64,000 bases of DNA from Syntrophales bacterium (GCA_049512055.1 JBEKXK010000002.1:11639-75638), one strand, 5' to 3'; counted from the first letter of the stretch, positions 13,333 to 62,318 are shown. Made by a program: numbers and translations. Notes: a model not told the origin generated them from the letters alone.

Positions 13333-14466
13333 CTAACTGCCGGAGGCAGGAGGGCGGGCCGGCACGGTTACAAACATACCGCCCACGCATAAGGCGGCAG
13401 CGAAAAGCATAACGCCGCGATACCCCCATCCCTGGGCAATGAGACCGCCGAGGATCGGACCCACGGCATTGCATAAATTAAGGGTAGACTGGAAGATGCC
13501 CCCCGCAGTACCCTTTTCTTTTCCGGCACGCAATACGATCAGCAAGCCGCCGACATAGAGGCATGACCAGGCCACTCCCAGGATCACCTGCACTATAACC
13601 AGGGCAAACCGGCTTGTCAAAAAAGCATACGCTGTGAAGACGAAAATTGAAAGCACTTGACCCCAGAAAAAAGTCTTGAACTCCGAAAACCTCTCGAGCT
13701 GTCGCATTACCAAAAATTGCACGGCATAATTAACTCCCCATAAGATACCGATCCAAAAATGATCGAGTCCTATGGAGACCAGATACAGCGGAAAAATGAT
13801 CCAGATGGCGCTGGCCCCCAGATGACGGAGGAAAACAGCAAGGTAAACCCTATAGTCCCGTCGCATTACAAGCCACAGATTGGGAGGTTTGGAAAATTTA
13901 TGCGAAGGCATCTTTTGAAAGGCCAGAGAGATGAAAAAGGCCAGCAGGCAAAAGAGAAAACTGAGCCAGAAAAGAAGTTCGATGTCGCCAACCATTGCTG
14001 CCGCGGCAGCGCCGAAAATCCATCCGAGGGACCCGTAGGAGCTGTATTTCCCCATATTGGCGCCGCATTCAAAGGCGTAAGTGATCATTGCCGCAACGGC
14101 AATGCCGAGGGCAAAGCCTACGGCCGCCCGAACGATAATTAATGCCGGGACGCTGTGCGCGAGGAGTTGGGCGGCAAAGGCCACACTGCTCATCAGAAGC
14201 CCCCACCGCACAAAGAGAAGCCTTCCCAGGTGGTCGGATTTCCAGCCCGAAATAAGAGAAGAAAATAGGAACGCGATCCCGTAGGCTGCGCCCACAACGC
14301 CGACCTCAAAGTCGGACGCACCCAATTGTGCACCCAGGAGGGGAACAAAGATAAATGAACTCATCGTAGCGAAGCTGAGAAAAAAGTTAACGAGGCCTAT
14401 GAGCCAGCGGTAAGACCCAGCCCCTGCCTGATCTACCTTCTCTATAATAATATCTTGTTCTAACAT
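13333..14466 (-). CDS. MFS transporter
   Basis: 377 aa with about 11-12 hydrophobic helices and an MFS motif-A-like GWKSDHLGRLLF. Confidence 0.9.
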   Translation of the reverse strand: MLEQDIIIEKVDQAGAGSYRWLIGLVNFFLSFATMSSFIFVPLLGAQLGASDFEVGVVGAAYGIAFLFSSLISGWKSDHLGRLLFVRWGLLMSSVAFAAQLLAHSVPALIIVRAAVGFALGIAVAAMITYAFECGANMGKYSSYGSLGWIFGAAAAAMVGDIELLFWLSFLFCLLAFFISLAFQKMPSHKFSKPPNLWLVMRRDYRVYLAVFLRHLGASAIWIIFPLYLVSIGLDHFWIGILWGVNYAVQFLVMRQLERFSEFKTFFWGQVLSIFVFTAYAFLTSRFALVIVQVILGVAWSCLYVGGLLIVLRAGKEKGTAGGIFQSTLNLCNAVGPILGGLIAQGWGYRGVMLFAAALCVGGMFVTVPARPPASGS

Positions 14467-14511
14467 GATGGTTCATTATCGCATAAATGCATGTGTCATA
14501 TCAATTCGTAC

Positions 14512-14544
14512 AAAAACAGAAAAACCCCGAAAGTACCTCCGGGG
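14512..14544 (-). terminator. Rho-independent terminator closing the kor-hdr-pspC operon
   Basis: Minus strand reads CCCCGGAGGTACTTTCGGGG followed by TTTTTCTGTTTTT. Confidence 0.65.
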
Positions 14545-14579
14545 CTCGTTTTCTTAATTGCCGGGAACATTATTTAATC

Positions 14580-14692
14580 GAAGCTCTCCGCAGCAAGCTG
14601 CGGAGAATCTTCGATTCTTAAGGAACAGTATCGTTCGTCATTCGCTCGCTTACCCCGCAGCACGCCACGGGGAATGCACTTGCTACCGAATT
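14580..14692. repeat. 113-bp intergenic repeat, copy A
   Basis: Same length and orientation as 17420..17532, with 11 mismatches counted by eye (~90% identity). Contains the hairpin GAAG-ct-CTCCGCAGC-aa-GCTGCGGAG-aat-CTTC and a CCCCG...CGGGG stem. Confidence 0.9.
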
Positions 14693-14716
14693 CATCGCTC
14701 TTATATCTTTTGTGTC

Positions 14717-14923
14717 CTAACCCCGATCCCTAGATGTATCCGGCCTCTTCGGAATTATGAGCCACATGGCAAAGTAGGCGGGAATGGCAAACCCGAATGA
14801 TAAGAGGACAAGCATAATAAAAATAATTCTTATCAAGGTGGCATCCCGGTCAAAATACTCCCCGATGCCCCCGCAGACGCCTCCTATTTTCTTGTCAGTA
14901 GACGAAAGATATAACCTTTTCAT
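14717..14923 (-). CDS. PspC-domain membrane protein
   Basis: 68 aa. KKIGGVCGGIGEYFDRDATLIRIIF followed by a TM helix is typical of a PspC domain. Confidence 0.8.
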   Translation of the reverse strand: MKRLYLSSTDKKIGGVCGGIGEYFDRDATLIRIIFIMLVLLSFGFAIPAYFAMWLIIPKRPDTSRDRG

Positions 14924-14945
14924 TTGAACACCTCTTTGAAATCAA

Positions 14946-17402
14946 TTAACCATCTTTTGCAGCGGCCGACCCCTTGCTCTTCGAACGAGTCTTCTGCTCC
15001 TTCACTATGCGTATCGTTTCTCGGACTTCCTTGGGAGTGACGCTCTTCCTGATCTTCTCCATCTTCTCCATGACCTCTTGAAAGCGAAGTCCTTCCGCCG
15101 CGCTTATCCACTCCAGGGCCAGCCTTTCCGTGCGGAGGCCCATCTTTTCCATCTTCTTCCAGATGCGCTTGATACGCCGCTCTGTCCACTGATTGGCGTT
15201 CATGTAGTGGCAGTCGCCTATGTGACAGCCCGATACCAGCACTACGGGCGCCCCTTTGGCAAAGGCACGCCAGATGAACTTCTCGTGCACCCTGCCGGAG
15301 CACATGGTCCGGATCAGGCGGGTGTTGTGCGAGTAGTGAAGCCGCGATACACCGGCGATATCGGCTCCTGCATAGGAGCACCAGTTGCATGCGAAGACCG
15401 GTATCCTCTCGGCGGCATTCCCTTCGAGCACGGCGTCAATCTGAGCCTCAATCTGCGCGTCTGTAAAATGATTCATCATAATAGCCATGGTGGGGCATTC
15501 AGCCGCGCATGTGCCGCAGCCCGAACATGCCGCTTCGGTGACTACTGCTGCCGTCTTCGCCCTTGTGTCCACGCTGATGGCATTGTACGGGCACACCTTT
15601 GCACACAGGCCGCAGGAGTTGCATAGTTCGGGATCAACTGCCGCTGTGATCGCCTCCACAGTGAGCGATCCGGGATTCATGAGGCGCATGGCCCGGGCAG
15701 TGGCTGCAGAGGCCTGGGTGACGGAATCTTTTATGTCTTTGGGACCTTCGGCGCAGCCGGCAAAGAAGATCCCCCGTGTCGCTGAATCCACGGGCTGCAG
15801 CTTCGGGTGGGCCTCCAGGTAGAAGCCGTCCGATGTTGTCTGGAGGGCCAGCATCTCCTGAATAGTCTTCATGTCTGCCGGAGGTTCGAGGCCTACAGCG
15901 AGGACAGCCATTTCCGTGTGGTGGCTCTCCAACTCATTTGTAGCTGTGTTTTCCACTGTCAACACAAGATCCCGCGTTGCGGGGTCCTGCTTAATGTCAC
16001 CGGGAAGGCCCCGGATGTAACGGACACCCATACCCTTGCTGCGCCGGAAGAGATCCTCGAATCCCTTGCCAAAGGCCCGGATGTCAATATAGAACACCTT
16101 CACCTCCATGTCCGGATAGTGTTCTTTGAGCATGATCGTGCTCTTCACAGTGTTCATGCAGCAGATATTCGAACAGTAGGGCCTGCCCCGGCGCTGGGAT
16201 CGGGAGCCCACGCATTGTATGAAGGCGACGGACTTGGGAATCTTACCATCTGTAAGGCGGATGACCTTGCCGCTCGTAGGCCCGCCGGCATTGATCAGGC
16301 GCTCGAGCTCCATGCTCGTCAGCACGTTCTCGTAGCGGGTGTAGCCATACTCATCGAGAATAGTCGGATCATAGGCCTCCATGCCCGTGGCCACGATGAT
16401 TGTGCCGACGTCGAACTCCATCTCTTCATCGTTCATGTCGAAGTCGATGCAGCGCTTCTTGCATTTTTCTATGCACTTTCCGCAGATGATGGGATTGTGA
16501 CCCAGGCATCGGGTGATATCGACGGCAAAAGCCCCCGGCACCGCTTGAGGAAAAGGCGAATAGATGGCCCGGCGGGAGCTCAGTCCCATGTTGAACTCAT
16601 CGGGAATGATGACCGGGCAGACCTCAACGCAGTCGCCGCATGCCGTACACTCCTTCTCCTTCACGTACCTCGCCCTCTTCAGGATGCGCACATGAAAGCT
16701 GCCCACGAATCCCGTGATCTCTTTTACTTCACTCATCGTTAAGAGCGTAATGTTGGGATGCCGACCGGCATCCGTCATCTTGGGACCGAGTATTCAGATG
16801 GAACAGTCCATAGTGGGAAATGTCTTGTCCAGCCTCGCCATGATGCCGCCGATGCTCGGTTGTTTCTCGACGAGTATCACCTTGTAGCCCGAGTCCGCGA
16901 GATCAAGCGCCGCCTGGATCCCCGCCACACCTCCACCTATAACCAGAGTTGAGGGTGCGACCGGAACATCCATTTCCGTTTGTGCGGCAAGCAGGCGGAC
17001 CCTTGATACGGCGGAGCGCACCAGATCTCTCGCCTTGATAGTGGCATTCTTGGCGTCATGGCTGTGCACCCATGAACATTGCTCACGGATGTTCGCCATC
17101 TCCATAAGGTAAGGGTTCAGTCCGGCCTCACTGACGCACTGCCGGAACGTAGCCTCATGAAGCCGCGGTGAGCACGAGGCCACCACTACACGGTTGAGTC
17201 CAAATTCCTCTATGTCACTCTTGATCTGGTTCTGGCCGGGCTCGGAGCATGTGTATCCCTGGTTCCGGCATATCACAACGTCCGGCAGTTTACCTGCATA
17301 TGCAGCCACTGCATCGCAATCGACAACGCCCGCGATATTAGATCCGCACTGGCAGACATAGACGCCTATTCTGACTGCGTTATCCTGTTTTGATTCTTCC
17401 AT
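14946..17402 (-). CDS. hdrA: heterodisulfide reductase subunit A-like flavoprotein with fused C-terminal MvhD domain; selenocysteine encoded by in-frame UGA at 16794..16796
   Basis: ORFs 16794..17402 and 14946..16778 share one frame and are separated only by TGA plus 5 sense codons. The junction reads [29 protein letters not shown], which places U at the Cys/Sec position of the HdrA motif. Other supporting motifs are the FAD motif [16 protein letters not shown], several CxxCxxCxxxCP clusters, and a C-terminal [15 protein letters not shown] (MvhD/FlpD-type). The full product would be 818 aa. Confidence 0.85.
16756..16773 (-). other. SECIS-like hairpin downstream of the hdrA UGA
   Basis: The mRNA reads GGAUGCC-GGUC-GGCAUCC, a 7-bp stem with a GGUC loop. 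It starts 20 nt after the UGA. Position and a G/U-containing loop resemble bacterial SECIS apical hairpins. Confidence 0.55.
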
Positions 17403-17419
17403 TCATCATCCTCTTTATT

Positions 17420-17532
17420 GAAGCTCTCCGCACCAAGCTGCGGAGGATCTTCGATTCTTAAGGAACATTACTATTCGTCATTCGCTCGCTTACCCCGCGG
17501 CAAGCCACGGGGACTGCGCTCGCTACCGAATT
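17420..17532. repeat. 113-bp intergenic repeat, copy B
   Basis: Counterpart of 14580..14692. It fills most of the gap between the hdrCB-like stop (17545) and the hdrA SD/start (17402). Confidence 0.9.
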
Positions 17533-17544
17533 GAAACCTCTATA

Positions 17545-18699
17545 TTACGCGATCTGGTCGGCCAGAACGGACACCAGATCCCGTATTTCCATCTTTATCT
17601 TCTTCCCCTGCATCAATGGATCGCGTATAGTGCAGGTGAGATGGATCATGCATTTGGGACATGCCGTAACGAGCATGTCCGCACCGGTTGCCCGCGCCTC
17701 CTCGAGCCTCTGCACCTGAATCTGCTTTGAAGATGCATCACAGTTGATGAAGCCGCAATTCCCGCAGCACAAAGCGCCCCTGCCTGAGTGTTCCATCTCC
17801 CGGAACTCCATTTCCGGAATGAGGCCGAGCAATTCCCTCGGGCCTGCATAGCGGTTCAGCATGCGCCCAAGCCTGCATGGATCCTGAAAAGTGACGGTGC
17901 GCTTGAGCGGCCGGAAGACCGTGCTGCCAAGCTGCATCTCCCGTTGGAGGAGATCCAGGAGCAAAGTTACTCTAATGTCAAACCCCGGTATGATGCGCGG
18001 CATGTGCTCACTCAAGACCTGGAAACACTCGGGGCACGAGACGATGATCTCCTTCACGCCGGCATCCTTGAAGGATGTGTAGTTCAGCCGGCAGAGCGCC
18101 TCAAAGTTTTCAATATCCCCCGACCAGAGCAGGTCGTGTCCGCAGCATCTTTCATTCGGCAGGAGAACAGGCTTGATGTCCAGAAAATTCAACAGGCGCA
18201 CGCTGTCTTTTGCTATAGAGACCGTATCCACATCGATGCCGGCGAAGAAGACATTGAAATATGGCGCGCATCCGGTGAAAAATGCGACGTCTCCTGACGA
18301 AGCCACTTTAATGCCTGGATCCAGCCAGTCGAGGCGGTTCTGCTTGAGGCGCGGGGCAGTCATCATCCTCATCCAGGAATGGATGGCGCCGTCGTGGGCG
18401 CGATAGCCCTTCAAGCCTTTTGTTTCAGCCAGCAGCGTACGCATCTCCAGGATGAAACGATTGAAATCCACGCCCGATGGGCAGCGTTCACGGCATAAGC
18501 CGCAGGTCAGGCATTCCCAGACCGAATTTTCGATGTAGGCCTCGTCCTCGCGCTCGGAGATCACTTTGTGCGCCAATAATCTGGGGGAGTATTCCTTGCC
18601 TGAGAGCCTTCGCGGGCACGAAGCAGTGCACTTGCCGCATTCCAGACATTGGTACAGCGACATATCTACGATCATCTGATCGATCTTCGGGTCGTTCAA
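17545..18699 (-). CDS. HdrC/HdrB-fusion (HdrD-like) iron-sulfur protein with two CCG domains
   Basis: 384 aa. The N-terminus has CLECGKCTASCP and CLTCGLCRERCP (2x[4Fe-4S], HdrC-like). The C-terminal part has CCGHD and CCGNCG cysteine-rich CCG motifs (HdrB-like). Confidence 0.85.
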   Translation of the reverse strand: MNDPKIDQMIVDMSLYQCLECGKCTASCPRRLSGKEYSPRLLAHKVISEREDEAYIENSVWECLTCGLCRERCPSGVDFNRFILEMRTLLAETKGLKGYRAHDGAIHSWMRMMTAPRLKQNRLDWLDPGIKVASSGDVAFFTGCAPYFNVFFAGIDVDTVSIAKDSVRLLNFLDIKPVLLPNERCCGHDLLWSGDIENFEALCRLNYTSFKDAGVKEIIVSCPECFQVLSEHMPRIIPGFDIRVTLLLDLLQREMQLGSTVFRPLKRTVTFQDPCRLGRMLNRYAGPRELLGLIPEMEFREMEHSGRGALCCGNCGFINCDASSKQIQVQRLEEARATGADMLVTACPKCMIHLTCTIRDPLMQGKKIKMEIRDLVSVLADQIA

Positions 18700-19127
18700 C
18701 TCTTCAACTCCTCCAGTTTGCGGCCTTCTCTGGACATCAGAGTCCCCAGAGCCTTCACCTCTTCCCTAAAATTCCATAGAGTCCGAACCAGCTCTTCTTT
18801 TTCATGGGCCCCGAAGGTGCGCTCCACCAGCCGTTCCTGGCGGATTCCCAGAAGGTGGAGTATCCTGCGGACGCGGTGCACATTTTCATGGCCCACCTCA
18901 GGCCCCGGGCCGTAGCGGCAATCCTCGTCCGTGCATTCCAGAAGTATTACTCCGTCTGCGCCAAACTCAAAGGCCCTCAGGATAAGGGCCTGATTGATGC
19001 GGCCGATGCACATCACCCGTATCAGGTGAAAGTTCGCCGGCATGCTCATCCCCGTCATCCCCGCTGCGTTGTAGCAGGCGAAAGGACTCCAGTTGCAGCA
19101 TATCGCCAGGATGCGGACAGGCTCCAT
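18696..19127 (-). CDS. mvhD: MvhD/FlpD-like (methyl-viologen-reducing hydrogenase delta subunit family) protein
   Basis: 143 aa. ILAICCNWSPFACYNAAG ... GADGVILLECTDEDCRYG parallels the C-terminal domain of the hdrA product. The stop overlaps the next gene's start by 4 nt. Confidence 0.8.
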   Translation of the reverse strand: MEPVRILAICCNWSPFACYNAAGMTGMSMPANFHLIRVMCIGRINQALILRAFEFGADGVILLECTDEDCRYGPGPEVGHENVHRVRRILHLLGIRQERLVERTFGAHEKEELVRTLWNFREEVKALGTLMSREGRKLEELKS

Positions 19128-19128
19128 A

Positions 19129-22100
19129 TCACAACTCCCTGACCAGTGCGCCTGCCACGATCTCTTCGAGGAGACGGTTGGTAAAGTACGGCATGTCCAT
19201 GGCAGTCACCGGACAGCGTCCCACACAGCCGCCGCACCCGACACAATTGTAGCGCAATACCTCCGCCGTGTAAAAGCCGCGCTCATTGGCGACAAGCCTG
19301 ACGGCGTCAAAGGGACATATCTCCACGCAACGGCCGCAGCCGCGGCATCGCTTCCTGTCCACCTTGGGACTGAGCTCATGGTCTTTCAAAAAGGCCTCTG
19401 CCGCAGTAGTAGCCACGTGCGCGGCCAGGGCGGCTCCTGCCTGGAAAGCAGTCACCCTCTTGAGTGTCCTGGGCATTACCCGATAGACGCCGATCTGGGG
19501 GCTGTGGAAAAATTTAAAGTTGTAGCGATAAAATTTCTTGAGGCCGAACATCCCCGCGGGAATTGCAAGAGGAAGGACGTTCATGTCGGCAAGACACACT
19601 ACATCCGCATGGAAATTCTTGCGAACGCCATTCTCACGCACGGCCACCGTAAAATCACCCAGGTGTCCCTTGATTCCTTCAATGAGAGCTTCCTCCACAT
19701 GCGTGATAGAAGCCCCGGCGATCCTGCTGACGGGCCTTTTGCGGACATCAGCGGGTGCTTTCTGGTCATCCTTGAGACTGCAACGATGGATCAGGCGCAC
19801 CTTGAATCCCTGCATGTTCAGGTTGAGGGCGGCGCTCAGGCCTACTTCCGAACCACCCAGAATCAGTATCCGATTCCCAATCTTCGTTGTGCTCTGGCGG
19901 AGCGGCCCCATGACCCGGGCGCGAATAAAGGCCTCCCTCAGAAAATTGCGCATTCTTTCTACGAGCATCTCTTCGGATACATCCGGAGAGCCCAGGTGAT
20001 CCCTGATGTTTATTGTCTCAAACCGGCAACGGTCAAGGCCATGCCTTTCAAACAGAAGGATGCGGGCGCGGTTTCTCTGATCGTTGCAGGAAATGCACTG
20101 AAACTCCAGGGGACAGCATACGCAGGAGGCCAGGATGACTCTCCCCAGCCTGTGCTCCCGCACAGCGGCGGCAATCCTTTCGGCGCCATGGGGATGGCAG
20201 GCCGAAAAAATCAGATCACTGTGCATCACGCCAGGCATCCTCAATGCCATATCCCGGATGCGCTCAAGGGCAGCAGGTGTTGCGAGGGTTCCGTTGCACG
20301 TGCAGGTGAATACTCCGAACCGCACTTCCTCTTCAGAAGCGATTGCAACCGGCTGGCATGGGACACTATTGGTCCGGAGGGACGAGCACTCCGCCATGGC
20401 CTGGCCCGCCGAGGCGCTGCCCGCAATCAATACATTCACGAGGTCTGTAGAGCTCCGGAAGTCTCCCACGCGGTATACATGTTCCTCATCGGCCAGGTTC
20501 AGGTGCGCAATCTCTTCATCGCCGGCCACAATTACGGCAGGACTGGAAACAGTCATGAGCTCCCTGTTCTTGAAATGATTGATGGCCCCTATATCCTTGC
20601 AGACGCTTTCGCAGAGGCGGCACTCGCAGCAGGAGCTGCAGTGCAGACAGCGTGCTGCTTCAGCCACTGTCTGCTCCTCGGTCAGTCCCAGATCCACTTC
20701 TTTAAAATCCCGGCGCCTCTCTGTCGCTTGCCGGCGCTGCATTTCCGGTCGAGATTTTCGGGGAGTGTCCTCAGATATTTCCAAATGCTCTCCGGCGCCG
20801 CGAGATTCATCAGGCAGCGCGCCCCACAATGGAGATACGCCGGTAAGATATTCGACAGCTCGTGCAGCGGCCCGGCGGCCCTGAGACATGGAGCCTACCA
20901 CAGTATCCGGTCCTGTGACCGCATCCCCGGCTGCAAAAACGCCTGCCTGCGAAGCCGAGAGACGCGCGTCCACATTGATCGTCCCCGACCGGCCCGTAAT
21001 CAGCTCTTTTCCGAGCCCGGTTCCCGCCAGGGACGGCTGTTGTCCGATGCCGACAATCACTGTATCCGCCGGCCGGAAGAACTCTGAACCTTTGACCGGT
21101 TCCGGCCTTCGTCGTCCACTCTCATCGACGGCGCCCTGCTTCATGCGGATCATGTCAAGTCCGGTAACCCTTCCCCTCCGGGAAACGATCCCGACGGGCG
21201 CCACGAGGTATTCAATCTTTACCCCTTCCTCCTGCGCACTCCGTATCTCCGATTCGTGCGCCGGCATATCTTTGCGTTTACGGCGGTAGCAGATGGTGAC
21301 GGATTTGGCTCCCAGCCGGATGGCGGACCGGGCCGCATCAATGGCGGAATTGCCGCCGCCGATTACGACTACATCGCCCCGGATGTTCGGCTTGCCGCCG
21401 GTGTTGAGCTCCTTCAACATCTCGAGGGCTCCATACACGCCCTTGGCATCTTCACCGGTAATATTGAGGCGGAGGTCCCGGTGCGCCCCGGTGCATAGGA
21501 GGACAGCCTGGAAACCCTGGTCAATCAGATCCTTGATGGAGCGGATCGGTGTACCGGTACGCATCTCTACGCCGGCATCGGCTATGGCCTGTATCTCTGC
21601 ATCGAGGACCTCACGGGGAAGTCTGAAGGCGTTGATTCCCATCCGCAGTATTCCTCCCGCCTCACGATGGGCCTCAAATACCGTGACGCTGAAACCCTCC
21701 CGGTTGAGGAAATAAGCCGCCGCCAGGCCGGCGGGACCGCCGCCCACTACGGCCACTCTTTCAGGCCTCAGCGGCTTTTGGGCGCCGGGCAGCCGCGGTC
21801 TGTGCTTGGCCATTTCCCGGTCGGCAAGAAAACGTTTTACGCTGCATATCGCCACCGCCTGGTCGAGCGAACTCCGCCTGCAGGCTTCCTCGCAGGGGTG
21901 GTGACAGACGCGCCCGCATATGCCCGGCAGGGGATTGTCCTGCCTTATCATGTCAAGGGCCTCGTCAAATCGCGAGGCGGCAGTCAGCGCCATATAGGCA
22001 TGGACATTCACGCCCAGGGGACAGCTTATCCTGCATGGAGAAGGTTTGCGCTTATCCAGATCAAGGGCCCGGGAAGGGCAGTAGGCCGGCGTCCTGCGCA

Positions 22101-22503
22101 GGGGAGGATGGCTCGAATTCTGAAGGGGACAAATCTCCATGCAGCGACCGCATCCCGTGCAGAGGTCATAGTTAACATATACGGGGTCTTGTGTGATGAC
22201 GGCCCGATAGCCATCGGGACCCCGCTTGATGGCCTCGATGCGCGCATGGGTTAAGGCGGTGACCAGCGGATGACGCGTTACCTGCAGGTACAGCGGGCGG
22301 AACTGGAAATCCAGATCCTCAGGGTAATCGGTAAAGGGCGCGGCTCCCCCGGGGTGCTCCAGGAAGTGAATCGCTTTCGTGACCCAGACCAGGGGCAGGC
22401 CGGATTGCGAGAGGTCCTGCGCCACTTTAAGGGCACCGTAACCGGAGCCTACAAGGAGAACGGCTTTTTTCAGGTTGCTGGTTGAGGAACTCCGATGCAT
22501 CAC
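19129..22503 (-). CDS. HdrL-type giant flavoprotein: HdrA-like domains plus GltD/NfnB-like NAD(P)H oxidoreductase module plus ferredoxin domains
   Basis: 1124 aa. GltD-like segment: CPLGVNVHAYM..ICGRVCHHPCEEACRR, VAVVGGGPAGLAAAYFL, VVVIGGGNSAIDAARSA, FAAGDAVTGP. HdrA-like Cys-rich segment: ILASCVCCPLEFQCISCNDQ. Further dinucleotide folds are LLVGSGYGALKVAQDL and ILILGGSEVGLSAALNL. The C-terminus has 2x CxxCxxCxxxCP. Confidence 0.8.
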   Translation of the reverse strand: MMHRSSSTSNLKKAVLLVGSGYGALKVAQDLSQSGLPLVWVTKAIHFLEHPGGAAPFTDYPEDLDFQFRPLYLQVTRHPLVTALTHARIEAIKRGPDGYRAVITQDPVYVNYDLCTGCGRCMEICPLQNSSHPPLRRTPAYCPSRALDLDKRKPSPCRISCPLGVNVHAYMALTAASRFDEALDMIRQDNPLPGICGRVCHHPCEEACRRSSLDQAVAICSVKRFLADREMAKHRPRLPGAQKPLRPERVAVVGGGPAGLAAAYFLNREGFSVTVFEAHREAGGILRMGINAFRLPREVLDAEIQAIADAGVEMRTGTPIRSIKDLIDQGFQAVLLCTGAHRDLRLNITGEDAKGVYGALEMLKELNTGGKPNIRGDVVVIGGGNSAIDAARSAIRLGAKSVTICYRRKRKDMPAHESEIRSAQEEGVKIEYLVAPVGIVSRRGRVTGLDMIRMKQGAVDESGRRRPEPVKGSEFFRPADTVIVGIGQQPSLAGTGLGKELITGRSGTINVDARLSASQAGVFAAGDAVTGPDTVVGSMSQGRRAAARAVEYLTGVSPLWGALPDESRGAGEHLEISEDTPRKSRPEMQRRQATERRRDFKEVDLGLTEEQTVAEAARCLHCSSCCECRLCESVCKDIGAINHFKNRELMTVSSPAVIVAGDEEIAHLNLADEEHVYRVGDFRSSTDLVNVLIAGSASAGQAMAECSSLRTNSVPCQPVAIASEEEVRFGVFTCTCNGTLATPAALERIRDMALRMPGVMHSDLIFSACHPHGAERIAAAVREHRLGRVILASCVCCPLEFQCISCNDQRNRARILLFERHGLDRCRFETINIRDHLGSPDVSEEMLVERMRNFLREAFIRARVMGPLRQSTTKIGNRILILGGSEVGLSAALNLNMQGFKVRLIHRCSLKDDQKAPADVRKRPVSRIAGASITHVEEALIEGIKGHLGDFTVAVRENGVRKNFHADVVCLADMNVLPLAIPAGMFGLKKFYRYNFKFFHSPQIGVYRVMPRTLKRVTAFQAGAALAAHVATTAAEAFLKDHELSPKVDRKRCRGCGRCVEICPFDAVRLVANERGFYTAEVLRYNCVGCGGCVGRCPVTAMDMPYFTNRLLEEIVAGALVREL

Positions 22504-23102
22504 TAATCCCTTGGCAACCTGCCCTGTTTTGCCCGGCTCTTGAGGGTAGCCTTGCCGTATTCGCTGCCGCGCTCGAAGGCCCGTGCGTTTACTTCCCGCG
22601 TTGGCGCCGGCACAGACGTCTGCACAGCTTTGCGCAAAGCCTCAGCGCTCACTAAATTATATACGGCAGCAAGAAATCCGAGCATGACGATATTCGCCAT
22701 CATTCTGTTGCCCAACTCTTCGGCGAAGCGGGTCGCCGGTATATTGTATGTGGTTACGTCTGAAGAATTTTTTTTTGCCTGCACAAGATCCGATTCCAGG
22801 ATTAGCGTGCCGCCGTCACGCAGACTGCCGATATTCTTGGAATAGCCTTCCTGGCTCAGACAGATCAGGACATGCGGCTCCTTTATATAAGGGAAAAGGA
22901 CTTCCTCATCGCTGATAATAATCTGGGCCGAGCAGGCGCCACCCCGAGCCTCAGGGCCGTAGGCCTGCGTCATGGTGGCAAATTTTCCGTCGTAAAGAGT
23001 GGCGGCCGTTCCGAGGATGTCGCCGGCCATGATGACCCCCTGTCCGCCGAAGCCCGTTATGAGAATGTGTTTTTCCTTATTCATGATAGTATCGCTAATC
23101 AC
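22503..23102 (-). CDS. 2-oxoacid:ferredoxin oxidoreductase, gamma subunit
   Basis: 199 aa. HILITGFGGQGVIMAGDILG is typical of OFOR gamma. Its boundary shares one base with the hdrL start. Confidence 0.9.
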   Translation of the reverse strand: MISDTIMNKEKHILITGFGGQGVIMAGDILGTAATLYDGKFATMTQAYGPEARGGACSAQIIISDEEVLFPYIKEPHVLICLSQEGYSKNIGSLRDGGTLILESDLVQAKKNSSDVTTYNIPATRFAEELGNRMMANIVMLGFLAAVYNLVSAEALRKAVQTSVPAPTREVNARAFERGSEYGKATLKSRAKQGRLPRD

Positions 23103-23992
23103 CCTGCCTGATTTTCCGGCACGATCGTGCCTTCAAAATCCGGCCAGTCCCCAATCAGATTCTTGCAGCTCAACTGATAGTTATCCATAAATGTCGACCG
23201 TTCGGTGTCCACAAATTTGCCCACTACGATATTGCTGCCGAAGTCTATGGGCGCCTCTTTTGGATCGATGTCGTTGCGAATGACGGAACGCTCATGATAA
23301 AACTTCAGAGTCTCCAGGGCAGTGCCGATCTTGTTGCGGCGCCCGAAGGAGGTGGGGCAAGGAGTCAGGACCTCGACGAACCCGAACCCGCGCTTCTGCA
23401 TTGCCTCGGTAATGGAGTTTGTGAGCCTGCGTATATGCAAAGACGTCCAGCGTGCGACGTAAACCGCACCGCATGCAGAGGCCAGATAGCAGAAATTGAA
23501 CGGTTCCTCCGGACAGCCCGTGACGCTTGTGGTAGTCTTAGCCCCGAAAGGCGTACTGGGAGCGAGTTGCCCGCCGGTCATCCCATAGTTTAAGTTGTTC
23601 ACACAGATGACTGTAACGTCAATGTTCCGCCGGGCCGCATGGATGAAATGATTGCCCCCTATGGCAAGCAAGTCACCGTCACCGGAGATGACGATCACCT
23701 TCAGCTCCGGTTTCGCCAGCTTCAGGCCGGTGGCGAATGGCAGAGCGCGGCCGTGCGTTGTGTGGAAGGAATCCAGCCGGATATATCCGGCCATCCGCGC
23801 GGTGCATCCGATACCGGAAACTATGGCAGTCTTGTCCAGATCGTTGCCTGATTTCTGAATGGCGGCAATCACAGACCCGAAGACGGTGCCGATGCCGCAC
23901 CCGGCGCACCATATATGGGGAAGCCGCTCACTCCGGATCAATCCTTCCATGGGATGCTCGGGCAGGGTCTTTTCCGCTTTTTTCGTCTTCAT
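23099..23992 (-). CDS. 2-oxoacid:ferredoxin oxidoreductase, beta (TPP-binding) subunit
   Basis: 297 aa. WCAGCGIGT and ISGDGDLLAIGGNHFIHAARRN (TPP GDG motif). 4-nt overlaps on both sides. Confidence 0.92.
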   Translation of the reverse strand: MKTKKAEKTLPEHPMEGLIRSERLPHIWCAGCGIGTVFGSVIAAIQKSGNDLDKTAIVSGIGCTARMAGYIRLDSFHTTHGRALPFATGLKLAKPELKVIVISGDGDLLAIGGNHFIHAARRNIDVTVICVNNLNYGMTGGQLAPSTPFGAKTTTSVTGCPEEPFNFCYLASACGAVYVARWTSLHIRRLTNSITEAMQKRGFGFVEVLTPCPTSFGRRNKIGTALETLKFYHERSVIRNDIDPKEAPIDFGSNIVVGKFVDTERSTFMDNYQLSCKNLIGDWPDFEGTIVPENQAG

Positions 23993-25149
23993 TTCTTCCC
24001 CTTTATAGAGTCTTCAATGGCGCTTAGGATGGTTACAGGGTGGATTATGGAACCGCCCATGTGGGACACCAGATGAACGGGACACGCGCCTCCGGCGCAC
24101 CGCTGCAATTCGAGGACCATCTGGCCTGCGTTAATTTCCGGCATAATGAGGGCGCGCACCCGGCCGGCTACGTCTCTGATAAGTGTTTCGGGAAAGGGCC
24201 ATACCGTTTCCAGTTTGATAAGTCCCGCGCGTATGCCTCTGTTTCGCGCATCGCGCACGGCCTGCCTGGCGGACCGCGCACTGATCCCATAAGCAACTAC
24301 AACGACATCAGCATCGTCGAGGAAAATATTTTCCGTCCGGATGATCTTGTCCCTGTTGTTTACGATTTTCCCGATCAGACGATTGACCATCTGCGCCTGT
24401 GTCTTCTCGTCCATCCCCGGATAACCGCGCTCATCATGCGTCAGACCTGTGATATGGATCCTGTAGCCGTCACCGCAGTTGGCCATGGGCGCGACCCCGT
24501 CCGGATCCGGGTGATAGGGCAGATAATCTCTTGGAGATACCTTTGGCTTCCGCCGTCCGACAAGCTTGATTTCCTCTTTTCGGGGAATGACGACGCGCTC
24601 GTTCATGTGACCGACTACCTCGTCCGCCATGATCATGACGGGTATACGGTACTGCTCGCTGAGGTTGAATGCGCGGACGGTCAAATCAAACATCTCCTGG
24701 GGACTGGAGGGTGCAAGCGCAATGACCTCGTAATGCCCGTGTGACCCCCAGCGGGCCTGCATCATATCCCCTTGGCCGACGAGCGTCGGGAGTCCCGTAG
24801 AAGGCCCTGCCCGCTGCACATTACAGATCACACACGGTGTCTCCGTACAGATCCCGAGACCGATATTCTCCATCATCAGGGAAAAGCCCGGACCGGACGT
24901 GCTGGTCATGGCCTTCACGCCTCCCCAGCTTGCACCCAGGATAGCCGACATGGATGCGATCTCGTCTTCCATTTGAATATATATGCCGCCTAGTTCCGGC
25001 AGCCTCCGGGACATGCGCTCGCCAATCTCCGTTGCCGGGGTAATCGGATACCCCGCGAAAAAGCGGCATCCCGCAGCCAGAGCGCCCTCACAGCAGGCAT
25101 AGTCACCGTTCATGAAATAGGTCCCCGTCAATACGGCCTTATCAGCCAT
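23989..25149 (-). CDS. 2-oxoacid:ferredoxin oxidoreductase, alpha subunit
   Basis: 386 aa. FAGYPITPATEI and MTSTSGPGFSLMMENIGLG are typical of the OFOR alpha subunit. Confidence 0.92.
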   Translation of the reverse strand: MADKAVLTGTYFMNGDYACCEGALAAGCRFFAGYPITPATEIGERMSRRLPELGGIYIQMEDEIASMSAILGASWGGVKAMTSTSGPGFSLMMENIGLGICTETPCVICNVQRAGPSTGLPTLVGQGDMMQARWGSHGHYEVIALAPSSPQEMFDLTVRAFNLSEQYRIPVMIMADEVVGHMNERVVIPRKEEIKLVGRRKPKVSPRDYLPYHPDPDGVAPMANCGDGYRIHITGLTHDERGYPGMDEKTQAQMVNRLIGKIVNNRDKIIRTENIFLDDADVVVVAYGISARSARQAVRDARNRGIRAGLIKLETVWPFPETLIRDVAGRVRALIMPEINAGQMVLELQRCAGGACPVHLVSHMGGSIIHPVTILSAIEDSIKGKK

Positions 25150-25206
25150 ACACCTCTCCTCGCATAACAGATACTTTATTATACTGATATGCAGTAAGTT
25201 CTTTCT

Positions 25207-25509
25207 CTACTTGTTCTTCCTTCGAGACCGGGCGGTCTTACCCTGTGCTGTTTCTGCTGCCTCTATGGAGAATATTCCAAATTCCGGACACAGGGCCTCG
25301 CAGAAATGGCAATTGACACATTTTGACTCGTCTATGACTGCAGGCGTATGATAGCCTTTGGCATTAAATGCCTGAGACATGGCAAGCACATCGCGCGGAC
25401 AGTATGCGACGCAGAATCCGCACCCTTTGCAGCGATCCTCGACGATGATGACCTTACCCCTGCTGGCCTTGATACTCTCCAGATCGAGCGGTTTTCTCCA
25501 GTATTTCAT
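25207..25509 (-). CDS. 2-oxoacid:ferredoxin oxidoreductase, delta (2x[4Fe-4S] ferredoxin) subunit
   Basis: 100 aa with CKGCGFCVAYCP and CVNCHFCEALCP. First gene of the operon, giving the order delta-alpha-beta-gamma as in OorDABC/KorDABG-type clusters. Confidence 0.88.
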   Translation of the reverse strand: MKYWRKPLDLESIKASRGKVIIVEDRCKGCGFCVAYCPRDVLAMSQAFNAKGYHTPAVIDESKCVNCHFCEALCPEFGIFSIEAAETAQGKTARSRRKNK

Positions 25510-25567
25510 GCGGCAATGCCTCTCTTCAAACGCATGTCCTTGAAGGATTTAATGAATAAAGAGAGTC

Positions 25568-25596
25568 TATATATGAGAAATAGCTGTATATGTCAA
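25568..25596 (-). promoter_or_regulatory. sigma-70-like promoter of the kor-hdr operon (TTGACA-17 nt-TATATA)
   Basis: Minus strand: TTGACA (25596..25591), the 17-nt spacer tatacagctatttctca, and TATATA (25573..25568). This is about 55 nt upstream of the korD-like start. Confidence 0.45.
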
Positions 25597-25849
25597 TAGC
25601 GCATGCACGCTGCAACTCTATGCTGTAATATCCAGAACATACGGATACACAGGGGCAACACTTGTTAAGATATGCAGCAACACAAGGAAATGCAGGCATA
25701 ACACCGTGTTCTCTTGCTTGGCAGGAGATGCATTTTTCGTCATTTCCTGATATAATCATTGACAATGCTTACTATGAAAATCTTGAGCACAGCAGATCAC
25801 TCTGATCAATACTCTCAATGAATTAATGTGCAGCAAAGAAAGGAGGACA

Positions 25850-27274
25850 ATGATGGATATATATGAAATATGCGTTGGAGGTACATTTCGCAAAACAGAC
25901 AAGATTCTGAAAGTCGCCAACCCGTATAATAATGAGGTCTTTGCTGAGACATATTTGGGCCGCGAAACTGATCTGGAAGATGCCATCTCAAAAGCTCAGT
26001 CGACGGAAAACGTCATGAAGGAACTGAGCTCTTTCGAGCGATTTGAGATACTCAGGTACATCGCCAATACCCTTACGCAGAGGAAAGACCGTTTATCAAG
26101 GGTGCTGGCACAGGAGTCGGGAAAACCTCTGATATATGCGGGCGCCGAAATTGACCGCTCCAGCCAGACTTTTCTCATCGCGGCGGAAGAATCCAAGAGG
26201 CTCCCCAGAGAATATCTGAGCCTTGACTGGACTCCCGGCGGTAAAGACAAGGAAGGGCTCGTAAAATATTTTCCCGTGGGCCTCGTCGCAGGCATCTCTC
26301 CTTTTAACTTTCCCATGAATCTCGCCGCGCACAAGATCGCACCAGCCATAGCAGCGGGTTGTCCCATAATAGTGAAACCGGCATCGGCGACGCCGCTTTC
26401 CACACTGGAACTCGCAAAAATCATCGACGAGACGTCGTTGCCGAAAGGGGCGCTGTCCATTAATCCGATGGCTCGTGCGACGGGAATGAAGCTTGTGACC
26501 GACGAGAGGTTCAAGCTTCTCACATTCACAGGGTCTCCAGAGGTGGGATGGAGAATGAAGAAAGAGGCGGGCAAGAAAAAAGTAGTGCTCGAACTTGGTG
26601 GGAACGCCGGCGTCATTGTATGCGGAAGCGCCGATATCGACTTTGCCGTGAAAAGGTGCATTTTGGGCGGTTTTGCCTACTCGGGGCAGATCTGCATCCA
26701 TGCCCAGAGGATCTTTGTGGAGAGAAGGATTTTTGATGAGTTTCTGGAGAAATTCGTAGTGAGCGCACAGAGCTTAAGGTTCGGTGACCCTCTCAAACCA
26801 GAAACACAGATCTCTGTCATGATCGATGAACCGAATGCGAAACGAGTCGAAGAGTGGGTGAAAGAGGCAACAAGCGGCGGTGCACAGATTGTCTGCGGAG
26901 GGAACAGAGATGGTGCATTTTGTGAGCCAACAGTACTCACAAACACGAAGAGATCGATGAAGGTCAATTGTCTCGAGGTTTTCGGGCCTGTGGTTACCAT
27001 AGAACCCTATACAACCATAGAAGAGGCGGTCCAAATGGTAAACGATACGAACTTCGGACTACAGGCTGGAATCTTTACTTATAACATGAATGAAATAAAC
27101 TACGCATTTATGAATCTGGAAGTCGGAGGTGTCATTGTCAATGACGTTCCCACATTCCGTGTAGATCACATGCCCTATGGGGGTGTAAAGGATTCAGGTC
27201 TGGGAAGGGAAGGCCTAAAATATGCTATCATGGATATGATGGAGCCGAAGATACTCGTTACAGATACGCGTTAA
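25850..27274 (+). CDS. NAD(P)-dependent aldehyde dehydrogenase family protein
   Basis: Same frame as ORF 25826..27274, started at the ATG 6 nt after AGGAGG. Contains LELGGNAG and the catalytic-Cys context SGQICIHAQR. Confidence 0.9.
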   Translation: MMDIYEICVGGTFRKTDKILKVANPYNNEVFAETYLGRETDLEDAISKAQSTENVMKELSSFERFEILRYIANTLTQRKDRLSRVLAQESGKPLIYAGAEIDRSSQTFLIAAEESKRLPREYLSLDWTPGGKDKEGLVKYFPVGLVAGISPFNFPMNLAAHKIAPAIAAGCPIIVKPASATPLSTLELAKIIDETSLPKGALSINPMARATGMKLVTDERFKLLTFTGSPEVGWRMKKEAGKKKVVLELGGNAGVIVCGSADIDFAVKRCILGGFAYSGQICIHAQRIFVERRIFDEFLEKFVVSAQSLRFGDPLKPETQISVMIDEPNAKRVEEWVKEATSGGAQIVCGGNRDGAFCEPTVLTNTKRSMKVNCLEVFGPVVTIEPYTTIEEAVQMVNDTNFGLQAGIFTYNMNEINYAFMNLEVGGVIVNDVPTFRVDHMPYGGVKDSGLGREGLKYAIMDMMEPKILVTDTR

Positions 27275-33163: not shown

Positions 33164-34318
33164 TCAAAAATGTCTGGCAACGAATTTCCTTATAATCCTT
33201 CCGGGAAATGTCTCCCTTGCGTGGAGAGCGCCATAGGGACAAACCTCAAGGCAACAGAAGCAGCGGATACAGCGGTCATAATCAAAAGAGAGCTTCTTTT
33301 CACGCAAAGAAATTGCCCCTGCAGGACAGATTTTCCAGCACTCGCCGCACATCTGGCAGGTTAGATCATGAGGGACAGGCCTCTGGAGAAGGTGTCTTCT
33401 GATAAACCCGTAAAGTTTTCGCGGCCCATACATAAGTGGACTGATACGGGGGAGCCTGAAATCGTGAATTATCGGAAGATCGCCATCAATCTCGATATCC
33501 GTTTCCATGATGCCCATATCTCTTGCCGCTTTCAGTGTCGGCAGCCTGTCTGCGTCCAACCCCAGCATCCTGCAGACAGTGCTGTCTACGGCAAAGGCAT
33601 CACTGCTGCCCATCAAAATACCGAGCTCTCTCGGTCTACCGCTTTTCCCCGGACCTTCGCCTTCCATAGCCAGGATCCCATCGAGAATTGTAAATGATGG
33701 CCTGATTCTCTGATAAATCATAACTAGTAGTTTCGCAAACATGGTGCGGTCGATGCCTGTCCGCATGTGCCACTCCGCTTTTCTGTAACCGACAACGCAG
33801 CCGAACATGTTCTTCACTCCGAGGGTCAGGAGCATCTGACTGTGCGTCTTGAGTTTGGGAAGGTTGATAATTACATCTGCATGCATTACATCCGCGGCTA
33901 TCTCAATTGCATTAAACGGTTCGCCGATATCGGTTTTCAGCGAGTTCTCAAATGCCCTGCAGTCGACGTTGAGCCCGGCAAGTGCATCCCCTATGCCGCT
34001 GTCCTTCATGATTTTCTCAAAAGAACCTATGGCGGGACTATCCGAAACCTGCGGGCGGGCGCCCTTTTGCAGAACATATTCCACTGCCGCCTTGACAATC
34101 ATGGGATGTGTCAGTACGGCCTCCTCTGGCGCAGCCGCTGATAGCATGTTCGGCTTGATAAGAACACGGTCTCCCCTTCCGATCAGATCGCCTCCAATTG
34201 TCTCCATGTTCTCGAAGAATGCAGCTTTGACCATGTTATAATCATACGTGGATTTTTTCAGTATTACTTTAGTCATGGGCATGATGGTTTTTTCATTCCC
34301 TTCTTTTTCATGTTGCAT
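33164..34318 (-). CDS. DUF362-domain protein with C-terminal 2x[4Fe-4S] ferredoxin domain
   Basis: 384 aa. The DUF362-like core is GDRVLIKPNMLSAAAPEEAVLTHP. The C-terminus has CQMCGECWKICP and CIRCFCCLEVCP. The true start may be MPMTKV (34282) or MTKV (34276). Confidence 0.8.
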   Translation of the reverse strand: MQHEKEGNEKTIMPMTKVILKKSTYDYNMVKAAFFENMETIGGDLIGRGDRVLIKPNMLSAAAPEEAVLTHPMIVKAAVEYVLQKGARPQVSDSPAIGSFEKIMKDSGIGDALAGLNVDCRAFENSLKTDIGEPFNAIEIAADVMHADVIINLPKLKTHSQMLLTLGVKNMFGCVVGYRKAEWHMRTGIDRTMFAKLLVMIYQRIRPSFTILDGILAMEGEGPGKSGRPRELGILMGSSDAFAVDSTVCRMLGLDADRLPTLKAARDMGIMETDIEIDGDLPIIHDFRLPRISPLMYGPRKLYGFIRRHLLQRPVPHDLTCQMCGECWKICPAGAISLREKKLSFDYDRCIRCFCCLEVCPYGALHARETFPGRIIRKFVARHF

Positions 34319-44054: not shown

Positions 44055-44068
44055 AAGGAGAATCGACA

Positions 44069-44614
44069 ATGGCAAAAGTTAAGATTGCCACTGACTGGCT
44101 GGCTGGCTGTGCAGGATGTCACATGTCGGTATTGGACATTGATGAACGCATTGTGAAGCTGTTAGAAGCGGTGGAAATTACATCCAGTCCTGTGACGGAC
44201 CTGAAACATCCGCCGAAAGAAGGTGTGACTGTTGGAATACTTGAAGGAGCAATCTGCAATACGCATAATGTGGAAGTAGCGAAGGTCATGCGCGAACGCT
44301 GCCAGATTCTGATAGCCCTCGGGGATTGTGCTACTTTTGGAAATGTCCCCGCTATGCGCAATTTGTGCGGCACGGACGAGGCCTTGAAACGCGCGTATCT
44401 GGATACGGAAAGCGTCGTGGACGGACTCATTCCTGACTCCCCGGAGCTGGGGAAGCCGCTTGACATGGTTACAGGCATTGATAAGGTGGTGAAGGTCGAT
44501 CTCTTTATACCTGGTTGCCCTCCGAGCGCGGATGCTATCTTCCATGCATTATCGGAACTGCTCGCCGGACACGTGCCAGTAAGTTTCCCACCCCCATTAT
44601 TCAAATATGATTAG
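44069..44614 (+). CDS. hoxY: [NiFe]-hydrogenase small subunit, HoxY-like (NuoB/20 kDa fold, proximal cluster only)
   Basis: Start at MAKVKIATDWLAGCAGCH, 8 nt after AAGGAG; the track start at 44051 is in frame. GDCATFG and IPGCPP complete the proximal cluster ligands. About 181 aa, so it lacks medial and distal cluster domains. Confidence 0.88.
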   Translation: MAKVKIATDWLAGCAGCHMSVLDIDERIVKLLEAVEITSSPVTDLKHPPKEGVTVGILEGAICNTHNVEVAKVMRERCQILIALGDCATFGNVPAMRNLCGTDEALKRAYLDTESVVDGLIPDSPELGKPLDMVTGIDKVVKVDLFIPGCPPSADAIFHALSELLAGHVPVSFPPPLFKYD

Positions 44615-44626
44615 AGGAGAGTAGCT

Positions 44627-59541: not shown

Positions 59542-59564
59542 GATGATACCTTTCCCGATTCAGT

Positions 59565-60804: not shown

Positions 60805-60851
60805 TGCTTTCTTCCTTCCTTTATTATATCAACGTGTGTCTCGTCCCTCGC

Positions 60852-62294: not shown

Positions 62295-62318
62295 GAATTA
62301 CCTCCGGCTTATATATTA

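Follow-up and report, generated by a model that had tools for sequence, protein, structure and literature searches.

An eight-gene bacterial cassette links a 2-oxoacid:ferredoxin oxidoreductase to a heterodisulfide reductase-like module with a predicted selenocysteine: a candidate electron-bifurcating complex

We analysed a 64,000-nt stretch of DNA from a Syntrophales bacterium (GCA_049512055.1 JBEKXK010000002.1:11639-75638; "the window" means this stretch at its full length), which carries an operon encoding a 2-oxoacid:ferredoxin oxidoreductase (OFOR) together with subunits of the heterodisulfide reductase (Hdr) type. Calling of open reading frames (ORFs) in the window places nine consecutive ORFs on the minus strand at 14717..25509, and for every ORF of the operon Pfam and NCBIfam agree with the label given in an earlier note on this DNA, so that its description of nine minus-strand genes with these domains stands. 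As the same note had claimed, Pfam finds no hydrogenase or formate dehydrogenase domain among the nine. The genes, with two features internal to the HdrA-MvhD gene, are the following:

25207..25509, minus strand: OFOR delta, 100 aa; 2x[4Fe-4S] ferredoxin-like protein (Pfam Fer4_7/Fer4)
23989..25149, minus strand: OFOR alpha, 386 aa (Pfam POR_N and PFOR_II)
23099..23992, minus strand: OFOR beta, 297 aa (TPP_enzyme_C); thiamine pyrophosphate (TPP) and [4Fe-4S] subunit
22503..23102, minus strand: OFOR gamma, 199 aa (Pfam POR)
19129..22503, minus strand: HdrL, 1124 aa; Fer4_20 and Pyr_redox_2 at residues 155-542, C-terminal 2x[4Fe-4S]
18696..19127, minus strand: stand-alone MvhD, 143 aa (Pfam FlpD, 117.7 bits); [2Fe-2S] electron-transfer protein
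17545..18699, minus strand: HdrD-like HdrC/HdrB fusion (HdrCB), 384 aa; Fer4_8 and two CCG domains
14946..17402, minus strand: HdrA-MvhD fusion of the HdrA2 type, 818 aa; predicted selenocysteine (Sec) at codon 203
16794..16796, minus strand: in-frame TGA within HdrA-MvhD, read as Sec
16756..16773, minus strand: hairpin GGAUGCC-GGUC-GGCAUCC resembling a selenocysteine insertion sequence (SECIS), 23 nt after the U of the UGA
14717..14923, minus strand: PspC-domain small membrane protein, 68 aa (Pfam PspC); co-oriented passenger

The short junctions that had been pointed out previously are 4-nt overlaps at alpha/beta, beta/gamma and MvhD/HdrCB, a 1-nt overlap at gamma/HdrL and a 1-nt gap at HdrL/MvhD, while larger gaps separate delta from alpha (57 nt) and HdrCB from HdrA (142 nt).

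The domains and motifs of a four-subunit OFOR were all found, in alpha, beta, gamma and delta. The alpha subunit matches POR_N (230.7 bits) and PFOR_II (73.3 bits) in Pfam and reaches 573 bits against the NCBIfam model NF006412, '2-oxoacid:acceptor oxidoreductase subunit alpha' (cutoff 411). Its translation contains the YPITP motif (GYPITPATE), and its closest solved chains are 1yd7 (alpha subunit of the P. furiosus 2-keto acid:ferredoxin oxidoreductase) and 8ys5 (2-oxoglutarate synthase alpha). The beta subunit matches TPP_enzyme_C (125 bits) and displays the GDGD...NN TPP-binding motif. When the conservation of cysteines was scored over 48-68 unique orthologs per subunit, all those assigned to Fe-S, CCG and [2Fe-2S] sites proved to be conserved across delta, beta, HdrL, both MvhD units, HdrCB and HdrA; thus beta Cys29/32/63/212, which account for one [4Fe-4S] cluster, are kept in 58/58 orthologs and the eight cysteines of delta in all 61 unique ones. 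The best NCBIfam matches of delta are OGOR_delta and OorD, both under cutoff. Models of the Kor/Oor/For type are the nearest named relatives of this OFOR, and the delta-alpha-beta-gamma gene order agrees with them.

HdrL corresponds to the original definition of this protein, namely more than 1000 aa, an HdrA-like part combined with an NAD(P)H domain like the small subunit of glutamate synthase, and mvhD as the next gene (Strittmatter et al. 2009, PMC2702500). Aligned to the operon's own HdrA, residues 14-127 resemble HdrA 151-264, that is the start of the thioredoxin-reductase-like domain and the first half of the inserted ferredoxin domain, without the CxxC/U pair. Residues 155-632 form an NfnB/GltD-like FAD-NAD(P)H-2x[4Fe-4S] module, closest to 9bov, 8oh5, 9n5u, 4ylf and 5jca, which is the best-conserved and highest-scoring portion of the protein; the NAD(P)H module that had been proposed inside HdrL is thereby confirmed by Pfam and by the NfnB-like structures. 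Residues 724-~1000 correspond to the HdrA N-terminal cluster domain (724-907 match this domain in 8rvu and 5odc) and to a second Rossmann-like region with a degenerate motif, GGSEVG, and residues 1011-1120 resemble the C-terminal ferredoxin domain of HdrA. The metal-binding cysteines of HdrL are kept in 60-61 orthologs. The NfnB-like insertion sits at the position of a similar insertion in HdrA9-11 of ANME-1; such insertions in HdrA have been interpreted as creating two sites of bifurcation, NADPH being the carrier (PMC9012536).

Downstream of HdrL, the stand-alone MvhD has Cys11/18/40/65/70 conserved among its orthologs. The HdrC/B fusion has TfrB, subunit B of thiol:fumarate reductase, as its best NCBIfam match, and both of its CCG signatures (C...CC...CxxC, twice; Cys144/185/186/222/225 and Cys275/311/312/347/350) are kept in 66-68 of 68 orthologs. 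The locus fits neither the NfnAB nor the MvhADG-HdrABC system: the NfnB-like module is present and Pfam finds no NfnA-like gene in the cassette, and no MvhA/MvhG or FdhAB domains occur in the nine ORFs.

The last of these subunits is split in a conventional ORF call, since 16794..17402 and 14946..16778 share one frame and are separated by the TGA at 16794..16796 alone. The product as a whole matches the HdrA2 model NF040770 over residues 11-792 (1211.6 bits, cutoff 1100), the C-terminal MvhD part being recognised as FlpD at residues 668-784. Its translation has the Rossmann motif for FAD, GGGVAG, and a DCSIU pair, and its cluster cysteines are kept in 54-56 of 56 orthologs. In all 63 orthologs that cover the site a TGA stands at the same codon, within the motif DCSI-U-ILGPKM, and is the second member of a Cys-x-x-Sec pair. 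In nearly every HdrA ortholog, a hairpin whose loop is GGUC is predicted 23 nt past the U of the UGA. Over 56 unique sequences, the third positions of its codons (GAT GCC GGT CGG CAT) have an entropy of 0-0.13 bit, compared with 0.7-1.65 bit for flanking degenerate codons, and we call the hairpin SECIS-like because such freezing of synonymous sites indicates the RNA-level constraint typical of bacterial SECIS elements. Its GGUC loop is the same as that of E. coli fdhF. Rfam returned no match in the whole window at gathering thresholds, nor in 14400..17600 at E<=1, the SECIS-like hairpin included, and no tRNA genes were found in the window. Decoding of the TGA as Sec, as the earlier label of this gene implied, is well supported by the invariant codon and the constrained hairpin, which together with the conserved protein downstream rule out the reading of the locus as a split pseudogene. 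The predicted Sec203 site corresponds to Sec197 of M. maripaludis HdrA, for which a recent structure led to the proposal that a selenylsulfide acts as a relay linking cluster A3 with FAD (PMC13518236). A paralogous HdrA-like gene with an in-frame TGA (motif FPTNDCAM-U-IISPK) was seen in a Desulfarculaceae metagenome-assembled genome (L071, about 20854..21093), ~3.4 kb downstream of the cassette.

The linkage between OFOR and the Hdr-type genes was then examined across genomes. Thirteen diverse HdrL homologs were aligned, two HdrL peptide motifs were scanned over GTDB with one genome per species, and the proteins of the window were mapped by tblastn onto 78 loci anchored on HdrL alone and chosen without any OFOR sequence. 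These loci belong to Syntrophales/Syntrophaceae, Desulfarculales (among them the isolate Desulfocarbo indianensis SCBM, L036, as well as strain Dcd-1, L053), other Thermodesulfobacteriota, Adiutricales, Poribacteria, Spirochaetota, Abyssobacteria and Actinobacteria (Gaiellales, Thermoleophilia); they cover at least six phylum-level groups, with HdrL identities of 52-95%. The nearest relatives are metagenome-assembled genomes from the Stordalen 'fen' and SPRUCE. OFOR alpha, beta and gamma lie directly upstream of HdrL in all 58 loci that have at least 3.3 kb of upstream sequence, and MvhD, HdrCB and HdrA-MvhD follow downstream in the same order in 54 of the 55 loci with room for them. In the exception (L018, 15419..21043) HdrCB is followed not by HdrA-MvhD but by genes of glycogen metabolism, which code for a nucleotidyl transferase and two enzymes of family GH57; this could be a rearrangement or an effect of assembly or binning. 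The gamma/HdrL junction, a 4-nt overlap at the median, is overlapping in 47/62 loci and no longer than 20 nt in 61/62; it is as tight as junctions within OFOR, for instance alpha-beta. Only the HdrCB-HdrA junction is consistently spaced (median 62 nt, never overlapping in other loci). How similar each subunit is to its counterpart in the window varies in parallel among the subunits (rho 0.62-0.92), in line with inheritance of the whole cassette together.

Within 7 kb on either side of the 78 loci, no extra neighbours (thiol carriers, CoA ligases, regulators, ferredoxins) are shared beyond the closest Syntrophales; the cassette is therefore self-contained, and its context gives no clue to the substrate. 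PspC was seen in no more than a handful of closely related Syntrophales (L003, L004, L005, L019), and a major facilitator superfamily transporter, a nitroreductase and a divergent aldehyde dehydrogenase are likewise confined to the closest Syntrophales. PspC is thus a lineage-specific passenger and the conserved unit comprises eight genes, not nine as first described. Altogether, these eight genes form a self-contained functional unit that crosses phyla. Conservation of the OFOR-Hdr linkage had been named beforehand as the observation on which the interpretation would stand or fall, and the linkage came through strongly on both sides of HdrL.

An association of this kind has been recorded before. 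Sedano-Nunez et al. (2018) list an Hdr-like set named HdrAL/POR (Sfum_0012-0018) that is tied to a pyruvate:ferredoxin oxidoreductase in Syntrophobacter fumaroxidans (PMC5947623). This is the same combination of Hdr-like proteins and OFOR, again in a syntrophic deltaproteobacterium, there named only and uncharacterised; the association had therefore already been noticed at the level of annotation, and the arrangement cannot be called wholly unnoticed. The S. fumaroxidans genome was not hit by the HdrL peptide motifs in the one-per-species GTDB scan, and its HdrAL/POR may, to judge from this, be a cousin rather than an ortholog of the cassette. The earlier interpretation passed its comparative test and is supported in part, while the membership of PspC had to be given up. 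In the full-text literature searched we found no purified or assayed OFOR-Hdr enzyme, in agreement with the earlier view that no enzyme of this composition has been characterised, although earlier mention in reviews is possible; a 2018 list of bifurcating enzymes holds none of this composition either (PMC5861303).

Among characterised systems, HdrA2B2C2 of Methanosarcina acetivorans is alike in its HdrA-MvhD fusion and in its HdrB/C-type modules with CCG and [4Fe-4S] domains. It takes electrons from ferredoxin or from a hydride carrier and bifurcates, and Yan et al. (2017, PMC5296606) suggest that its homologs in bacteria work with NADH and DsrC-like disulfides. It differs from the cassette in its donor (F420H2) and substrate (CoM-S-S-CoB) and has no NfnB-like subunit, extra MvhD or OFOR, whereas in the cassette HdrB and HdrC are fused and HdrA has Sec. 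Neither F420H2 nor CoM-S-S-CoB, the donor and acceptor of HdrA2, is expected in these bacteria, and the function of HdrA-MvhD would therefore differ from that of HdrA2. Large HdrA-like proteins with a GltD/NfnB-like NAD(P)H module also occur as HdrL of Desulfobacterium autotrophicum (PMC2702500), in HdrABC/HdrL of S. fumaroxidans (Sfum_0819-0824, PMC5947623) and as HdrA-NfnB of ANME-1 (PMC9012536). In the two bacterial cases mvhD is the next gene, as it is here; the loci adjoin dsrABC, fdh or hdrABC genes, not OFOR, and some of these HdrL proteins carry Sec themselves, while in the cassette Sec is found in a separate HdrA2 subunit. Residues 155-632 of HdrL also align with the NfnB-like FAD-NADPH-2x[4Fe-4S] module of NfnAB, NfnABC and StnABC, but the cassette has no NfnA or HydBC-like partner and its module is inserted in an HdrA scaffold.

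Bacterial Hdr-type proteins are combined with MvhD and no hydrogenase in FlxABCD-HdrABC of Desulfovibrio, MetFV-HdrABC-MvhD of Moorella and the class II benzoyl-CoA reductase BamBCDEFGHI. These systems work with donors at the level of NAD(P)H, and their partners are an NADH dehydrogenase, a methylenetetrahydrofolate (methylene-THF) reductase and a W-dependent ring reductase, respectively; to our knowledge, none of them contains an OFOR. Conversely, an OFOR is combined with an NAD(P)-binding flavoprotein in the phenylglyoxylate:NAD+ oxidoreductase PadEFGHI and in the 2-oxoglutarate:NADP+ oxidoreductase KorABC of Azoarcus, and we know of no HdrA, MvhD or CCG subunits in these enzymes nor of any report that they bifurcate.

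On balance we think it probable that the cassette encodes a reversible flavin-based complex, bifurcating or confurcating, which would couple a 2-oxoacid, NAD(P)H and a thiol/disulfide pair. The eight conserved genes would most likely encode one soluble multi-enzyme complex, in which a Kor/Oor/For-like four-subunit OFOR with TPP and three [4Fe-4S] clusters would handle a redox couple near -500 mV. HdrL would be wired to OFOR via iron-sulfur clusters and would offer an NfnB-like FAD/NAD(P)H site, at about -320 mV, within its HdrA-like scaffold. Further members of the complex would be two [2Fe-2S] connectors of the MvhD type, of which one stands alone and the other is part of the HdrA fusion, and the HdrA2-type flavoprotein with its Cys-x-x-Sec pair. 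The two CCG domains of HdrC/B would hold noncubane clusters for disulfide reduction or dithiol oxidation, the thiol/disulfide couple at this site being expected near -150 to -250 mV. The three redox pairs would thus be joined by Fe-S chains and by the flavins of HdrA and NfnB, families known to bifurcate; one or both of these flavins may be the bifurcating one. The proposed reaction, with either NADPH or NADH as the nucleotide, would be reversible:

2 NAD(P)H + R-S-S-R' + acyl-CoA + CO2 <-> 2 NAD(P)+ + RSH + R'SH + 2-oxoacid + CoA

In the forward direction exergonic disulfide reduction would pay for bringing electrons of NAD(P)H down to the potential that reductive carboxylation requires, without free ferredoxin, and in reverse the low-potential electrons of the 2-oxoacid and the high-potential electrons of the thiols would be confurcated onto NAD(P)+. 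Our best guess for the 2-oxoacid is 2-oxoglutarate.

Several points weigh against such a coupled complex. Synteny is not proof of a physical complex. The OFOR subunits do not reach the 2-oxoglutarate-specific NCBIfam cutoffs (alpha against NF007206, 386 with a cutoff of 579; beta against NF007207, 249 with 364; the OorC model, 108 with 216; OGOR_delta, 63 with 125), which makes 2-oxoglutarate a guess about the substrate and not a finding. No candidate thiol carrier lies in the cassette or within 7 kb of it in the 78 loci, and the hosts include non-sulfate-reducers without an obvious heterodisulfide. In the HdrA-like part of HdrL the second Rossmann motif is degenerate and the CxxC/U pair is missing, which leaves the number of functional flavins uncertain. 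An AlphaFold2 model of HdrL made from the 13-sequence alignment has a mean pLDDT of 61.8 and a pTM of 0.41, with the Fe-S domains under 50, and is of insufficient quality for comparison of folds. Besides, HdrAL/POR of S. fumaroxidans was undetected in any tested growth condition (PMC5947623).

The alternative that survives best is that OFOR and an HdrL/MvhD/HdrCB/HdrA complex are co-regulated but physically separate enzymes, linked by free ferredoxin and a shared pathway; the OFOR would reduce (or consume) the ferredoxin, and the Hdr-type complex would use it along with NAD(P)H and a disulfide. The OFOR has, like stand-alone OFORs, a complete delta ferredoxin subunit of its own, HdrA2B2C2 functions with free ferredoxin (PMC5296606), and synteny by itself does not distinguish this arrangement from a supercomplex; yet this HdrL subfamily was never seen without OFOR (58/58), the gamma/HdrL junction is as close as those inside OFOR, and no ferredoxin gene is conserved within 7 kb of the 78 loci. 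We regard separate enzymes as a serious possibility that we would nevertheless not expect to hold. We find it unlikely that the cassette encodes an NAD(P)+-linked 2-oxoacid dehydrogenase that does not bifurcate, in which electrons from OFOR would run downhill through the NfnB-like flavin of HdrL to NAD(P)+, much as in the NADH-dependent PadEFGHI or the KorABC of Azoarcus, the Hdr part serving a side reaction or redox regulation. That enzymes pairing OFOR with an NAD(P) flavoprotein exist is shown by the NCBIfam PadE/G/I models, and the NfnB/GltD-like module is the most conserved and top-scoring part of HdrL. However, these models of NADH-dependent OFORs match the present subunits weakly, far under their cutoffs, and strong purifying selection maintains MvhD, HdrCB with intact CCG motifs and Sec-HdrA2, all three present in 54/55 loci, which makes it hard to regard them as dispensable parts.

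A further reading, which we hold to be very improbable, takes the cassette as a 2-oxoacid-driven heterodisulfide reductase that would act through HdrA2/HdrCB in the manner of CODH/ACS (carbon monoxide dehydrogenase/acetyl-CoA synthase) and ferredoxin in M. acetivorans, HdrL being a valve to NAD(P)+. HdrA2B2C2 does perform ferredoxin-dependent heterodisulfide reduction (PMC5296606), but here the reaction would waste ~350 mV per electron, and it would remain unexplained why a large module for NAD(P)H and a pair of MvhD units are invariably there. Finally, chance adjacency of the genes, or a true stop that makes HdrA a split pseudogene, has nothing more than the bare in-frame stop in its favour and is hardly credible against the synteny (58/58 and 54/55), the 63/63 TGA codons and the hairpin with its frozen synonymous sites.

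Returning to the coupled bifurcating complex, a bolder version of it takes the methanogen Hdr-Vhu/Fdh-Fwd super-assemblies, reportedly described by Watanabe et al. in 2021, as its model. Such super-assemblies pass bifurcated electrons straight into the CO2-reducing enzyme (PMC13518236). They join an Hdr core, whose HdrA has the same Cys-x-x-Sec, to a CO2 enzyme at the level of ferredoxin, and low-potential electrons therefore need not leave the complex. They differ from the cassette in being archaeal, in receiving their input from a hydrogenase or formate dehydrogenase rather than NAD(P)H, and in their CO2 enzyme, a formylmethanofuran dehydrogenase reached via a polyferredoxin and not a TPP-dependent OFOR. 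The cassette might be an NAD(P)H-fed bacterial counterpart of Hdr-Fwd, a single Se-dependent particle whose NfnB-like flavin, HdrA flavin or both would feed the TPP enzyme directly, so that succinyl-CoA (or acetyl-CoA) would undergo reductive carboxylation with no reductant other than NAD(P)H and without free ferredoxin, disulfide reduction paying for it. We offer this version tentatively and would sooner expect it to fail in one of its parts.

The known partners of Hdr-type bifurcating modules are hydrogenase, formate dehydrogenase, F420, the Flx NADH dehydrogenase, methylene-THF reductase and aromatic ring reductases. To these the cassette adds a TPP-dependent 2-oxoacid:ferredoxin oxidoreductase, of which no characterised case as a fixed Hdr partner is known; in this HdrL family the linkage is absolute across several phyla. 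If the proposed coupling is correct, energy-starved anaerobes, among them syntrophs of peat and sediment, sulfate reducers that oxidise completely and subsurface Actinobacteria, could join their NAD(P)H pool to carboxylation or decarboxylation at -500 mV with no need for Rnf, a hydrogenase or free ferredoxin. Which thiol/disulfide the Hdr homologs of bacteria use physiologically, a long-standing question, would likewise become approachable through a defined eight-gene unit. Should the comparison with Hdr-Fwd hold as well, it would reveal a new drive for CO2 fixation with C-C bond formation in energy-limited anaerobes and a 'bacterial heterodisulfide' common to Syntrophales, Desulfarculales and anaerobic Actinobacteria. 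The universal Sec codon predicts a dependence on selenium, and the cultured carrier Desulfocarbo indianensis SCBM makes experiments feasible.

The operon is flanked by putative expression signals and contains one copy of a repeat, a second copy of which follows pspC:

25568..25596, minus strand: promoter-like site TTGACA-17-TATATA, upstream of the delta gene
17414..17532, minus strand: interspersed repeat, copy 1, in the HdrCB-HdrA gap
14574..14692, minus strand: interspersed repeat, copy 2, downstream of pspC
14512..14547, minus strand: intrinsic-terminator-like hairpin with T run (terminator scan)

The sigma-70-like promoter proposed in the earlier note is supported in part. TTGACA-17-TATATA is present at 25596..25568 by inspection of the sequence, but our scan did not list the site, since the -10 hexamer lacks a T at position 6. 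The block CTATTGACATA...ATTTCTCATA, that is the -35 block and the ATTTCTCATA that follows it, is kept in 9/10 close relatives while the flanks vary, and this conservation lends modest support to a promoter. At the other end, the intrinsic terminator was matched by the scan as a strong terminator-like hairpin (14547..14522) with an 11-pair stem including 5 G-C pairs and the tail TTCTGTTTTT. The counts of promoters and terminators in the region show no excess over shuffle expectation; of these signals we give weight to the terminal hairpin and to the -35 block, for its phylogenetic conservation, and to no others. An aldehyde dehydrogenase gene (25826..27274, plus strand) diverges from the operon's upstream region, a pairing seen only in the closest Syntrophales.

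The ~119-nt interspersed repeat fills the 142-nt gap between HdrCB and HdrA. Identity between its two copies is 88%, and a 23-nt core recurs in both without a mismatch, with 0 such recurrences expected by chance. The repeat, for which Rfam gives no match, forms two hairpins when folded (z = -2.9). A further copy lies in the same gap of a close relative (L029, about 14780..14920), and the closest relatives without the repeat have a gap of ~33-36 nt. The repeat is a candidate REP/MITE-like element (repetitive extragenic palindrome or miniature inverted-repeat transposable element) or a candidate for stabilising or attenuating the transcript. A conserved promoter or regulatory site inside the operon was rejected as an explanation of this gap, given that a lineage-specific repeat occupies it. 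An internal transcription start there is possible, because in other loci this gap is never overlapping.

Elsewhere in the window, ~17 kb from the cassette and on the opposite strand, a trio resembling a Hox-type [NiFe] hydrogenase (42273..46057, plus strand) consists of a NuoG/HoxU-like protein with a molybdopterin domain, a HoxY-like small subunit and a HoxH-like large subunit. In L079 a Hox-like trio is likewise found near the cassette, at a distance of 2.5 kb (20229..23396). Since the flanks of the other 78 loci lack it, we rejected this hydrogenase as the electron input of the cassette. Genes for glycine-cleavage P-protein subunits, lipoyl synthase and a dihydrolipoamide-dehydrogenase-like flavoprotein are grouped at 58189..63644 (minus strand); lipoyl proteins are dithiol/disulfide carriers used by the sHdr systems of sulfur oxidisers. 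An uncharacterised iron-sulfur protein, a member of DUF362 that ends in a 2x[4Fe-4S] domain, is encoded at 33164..34318 (minus strand).

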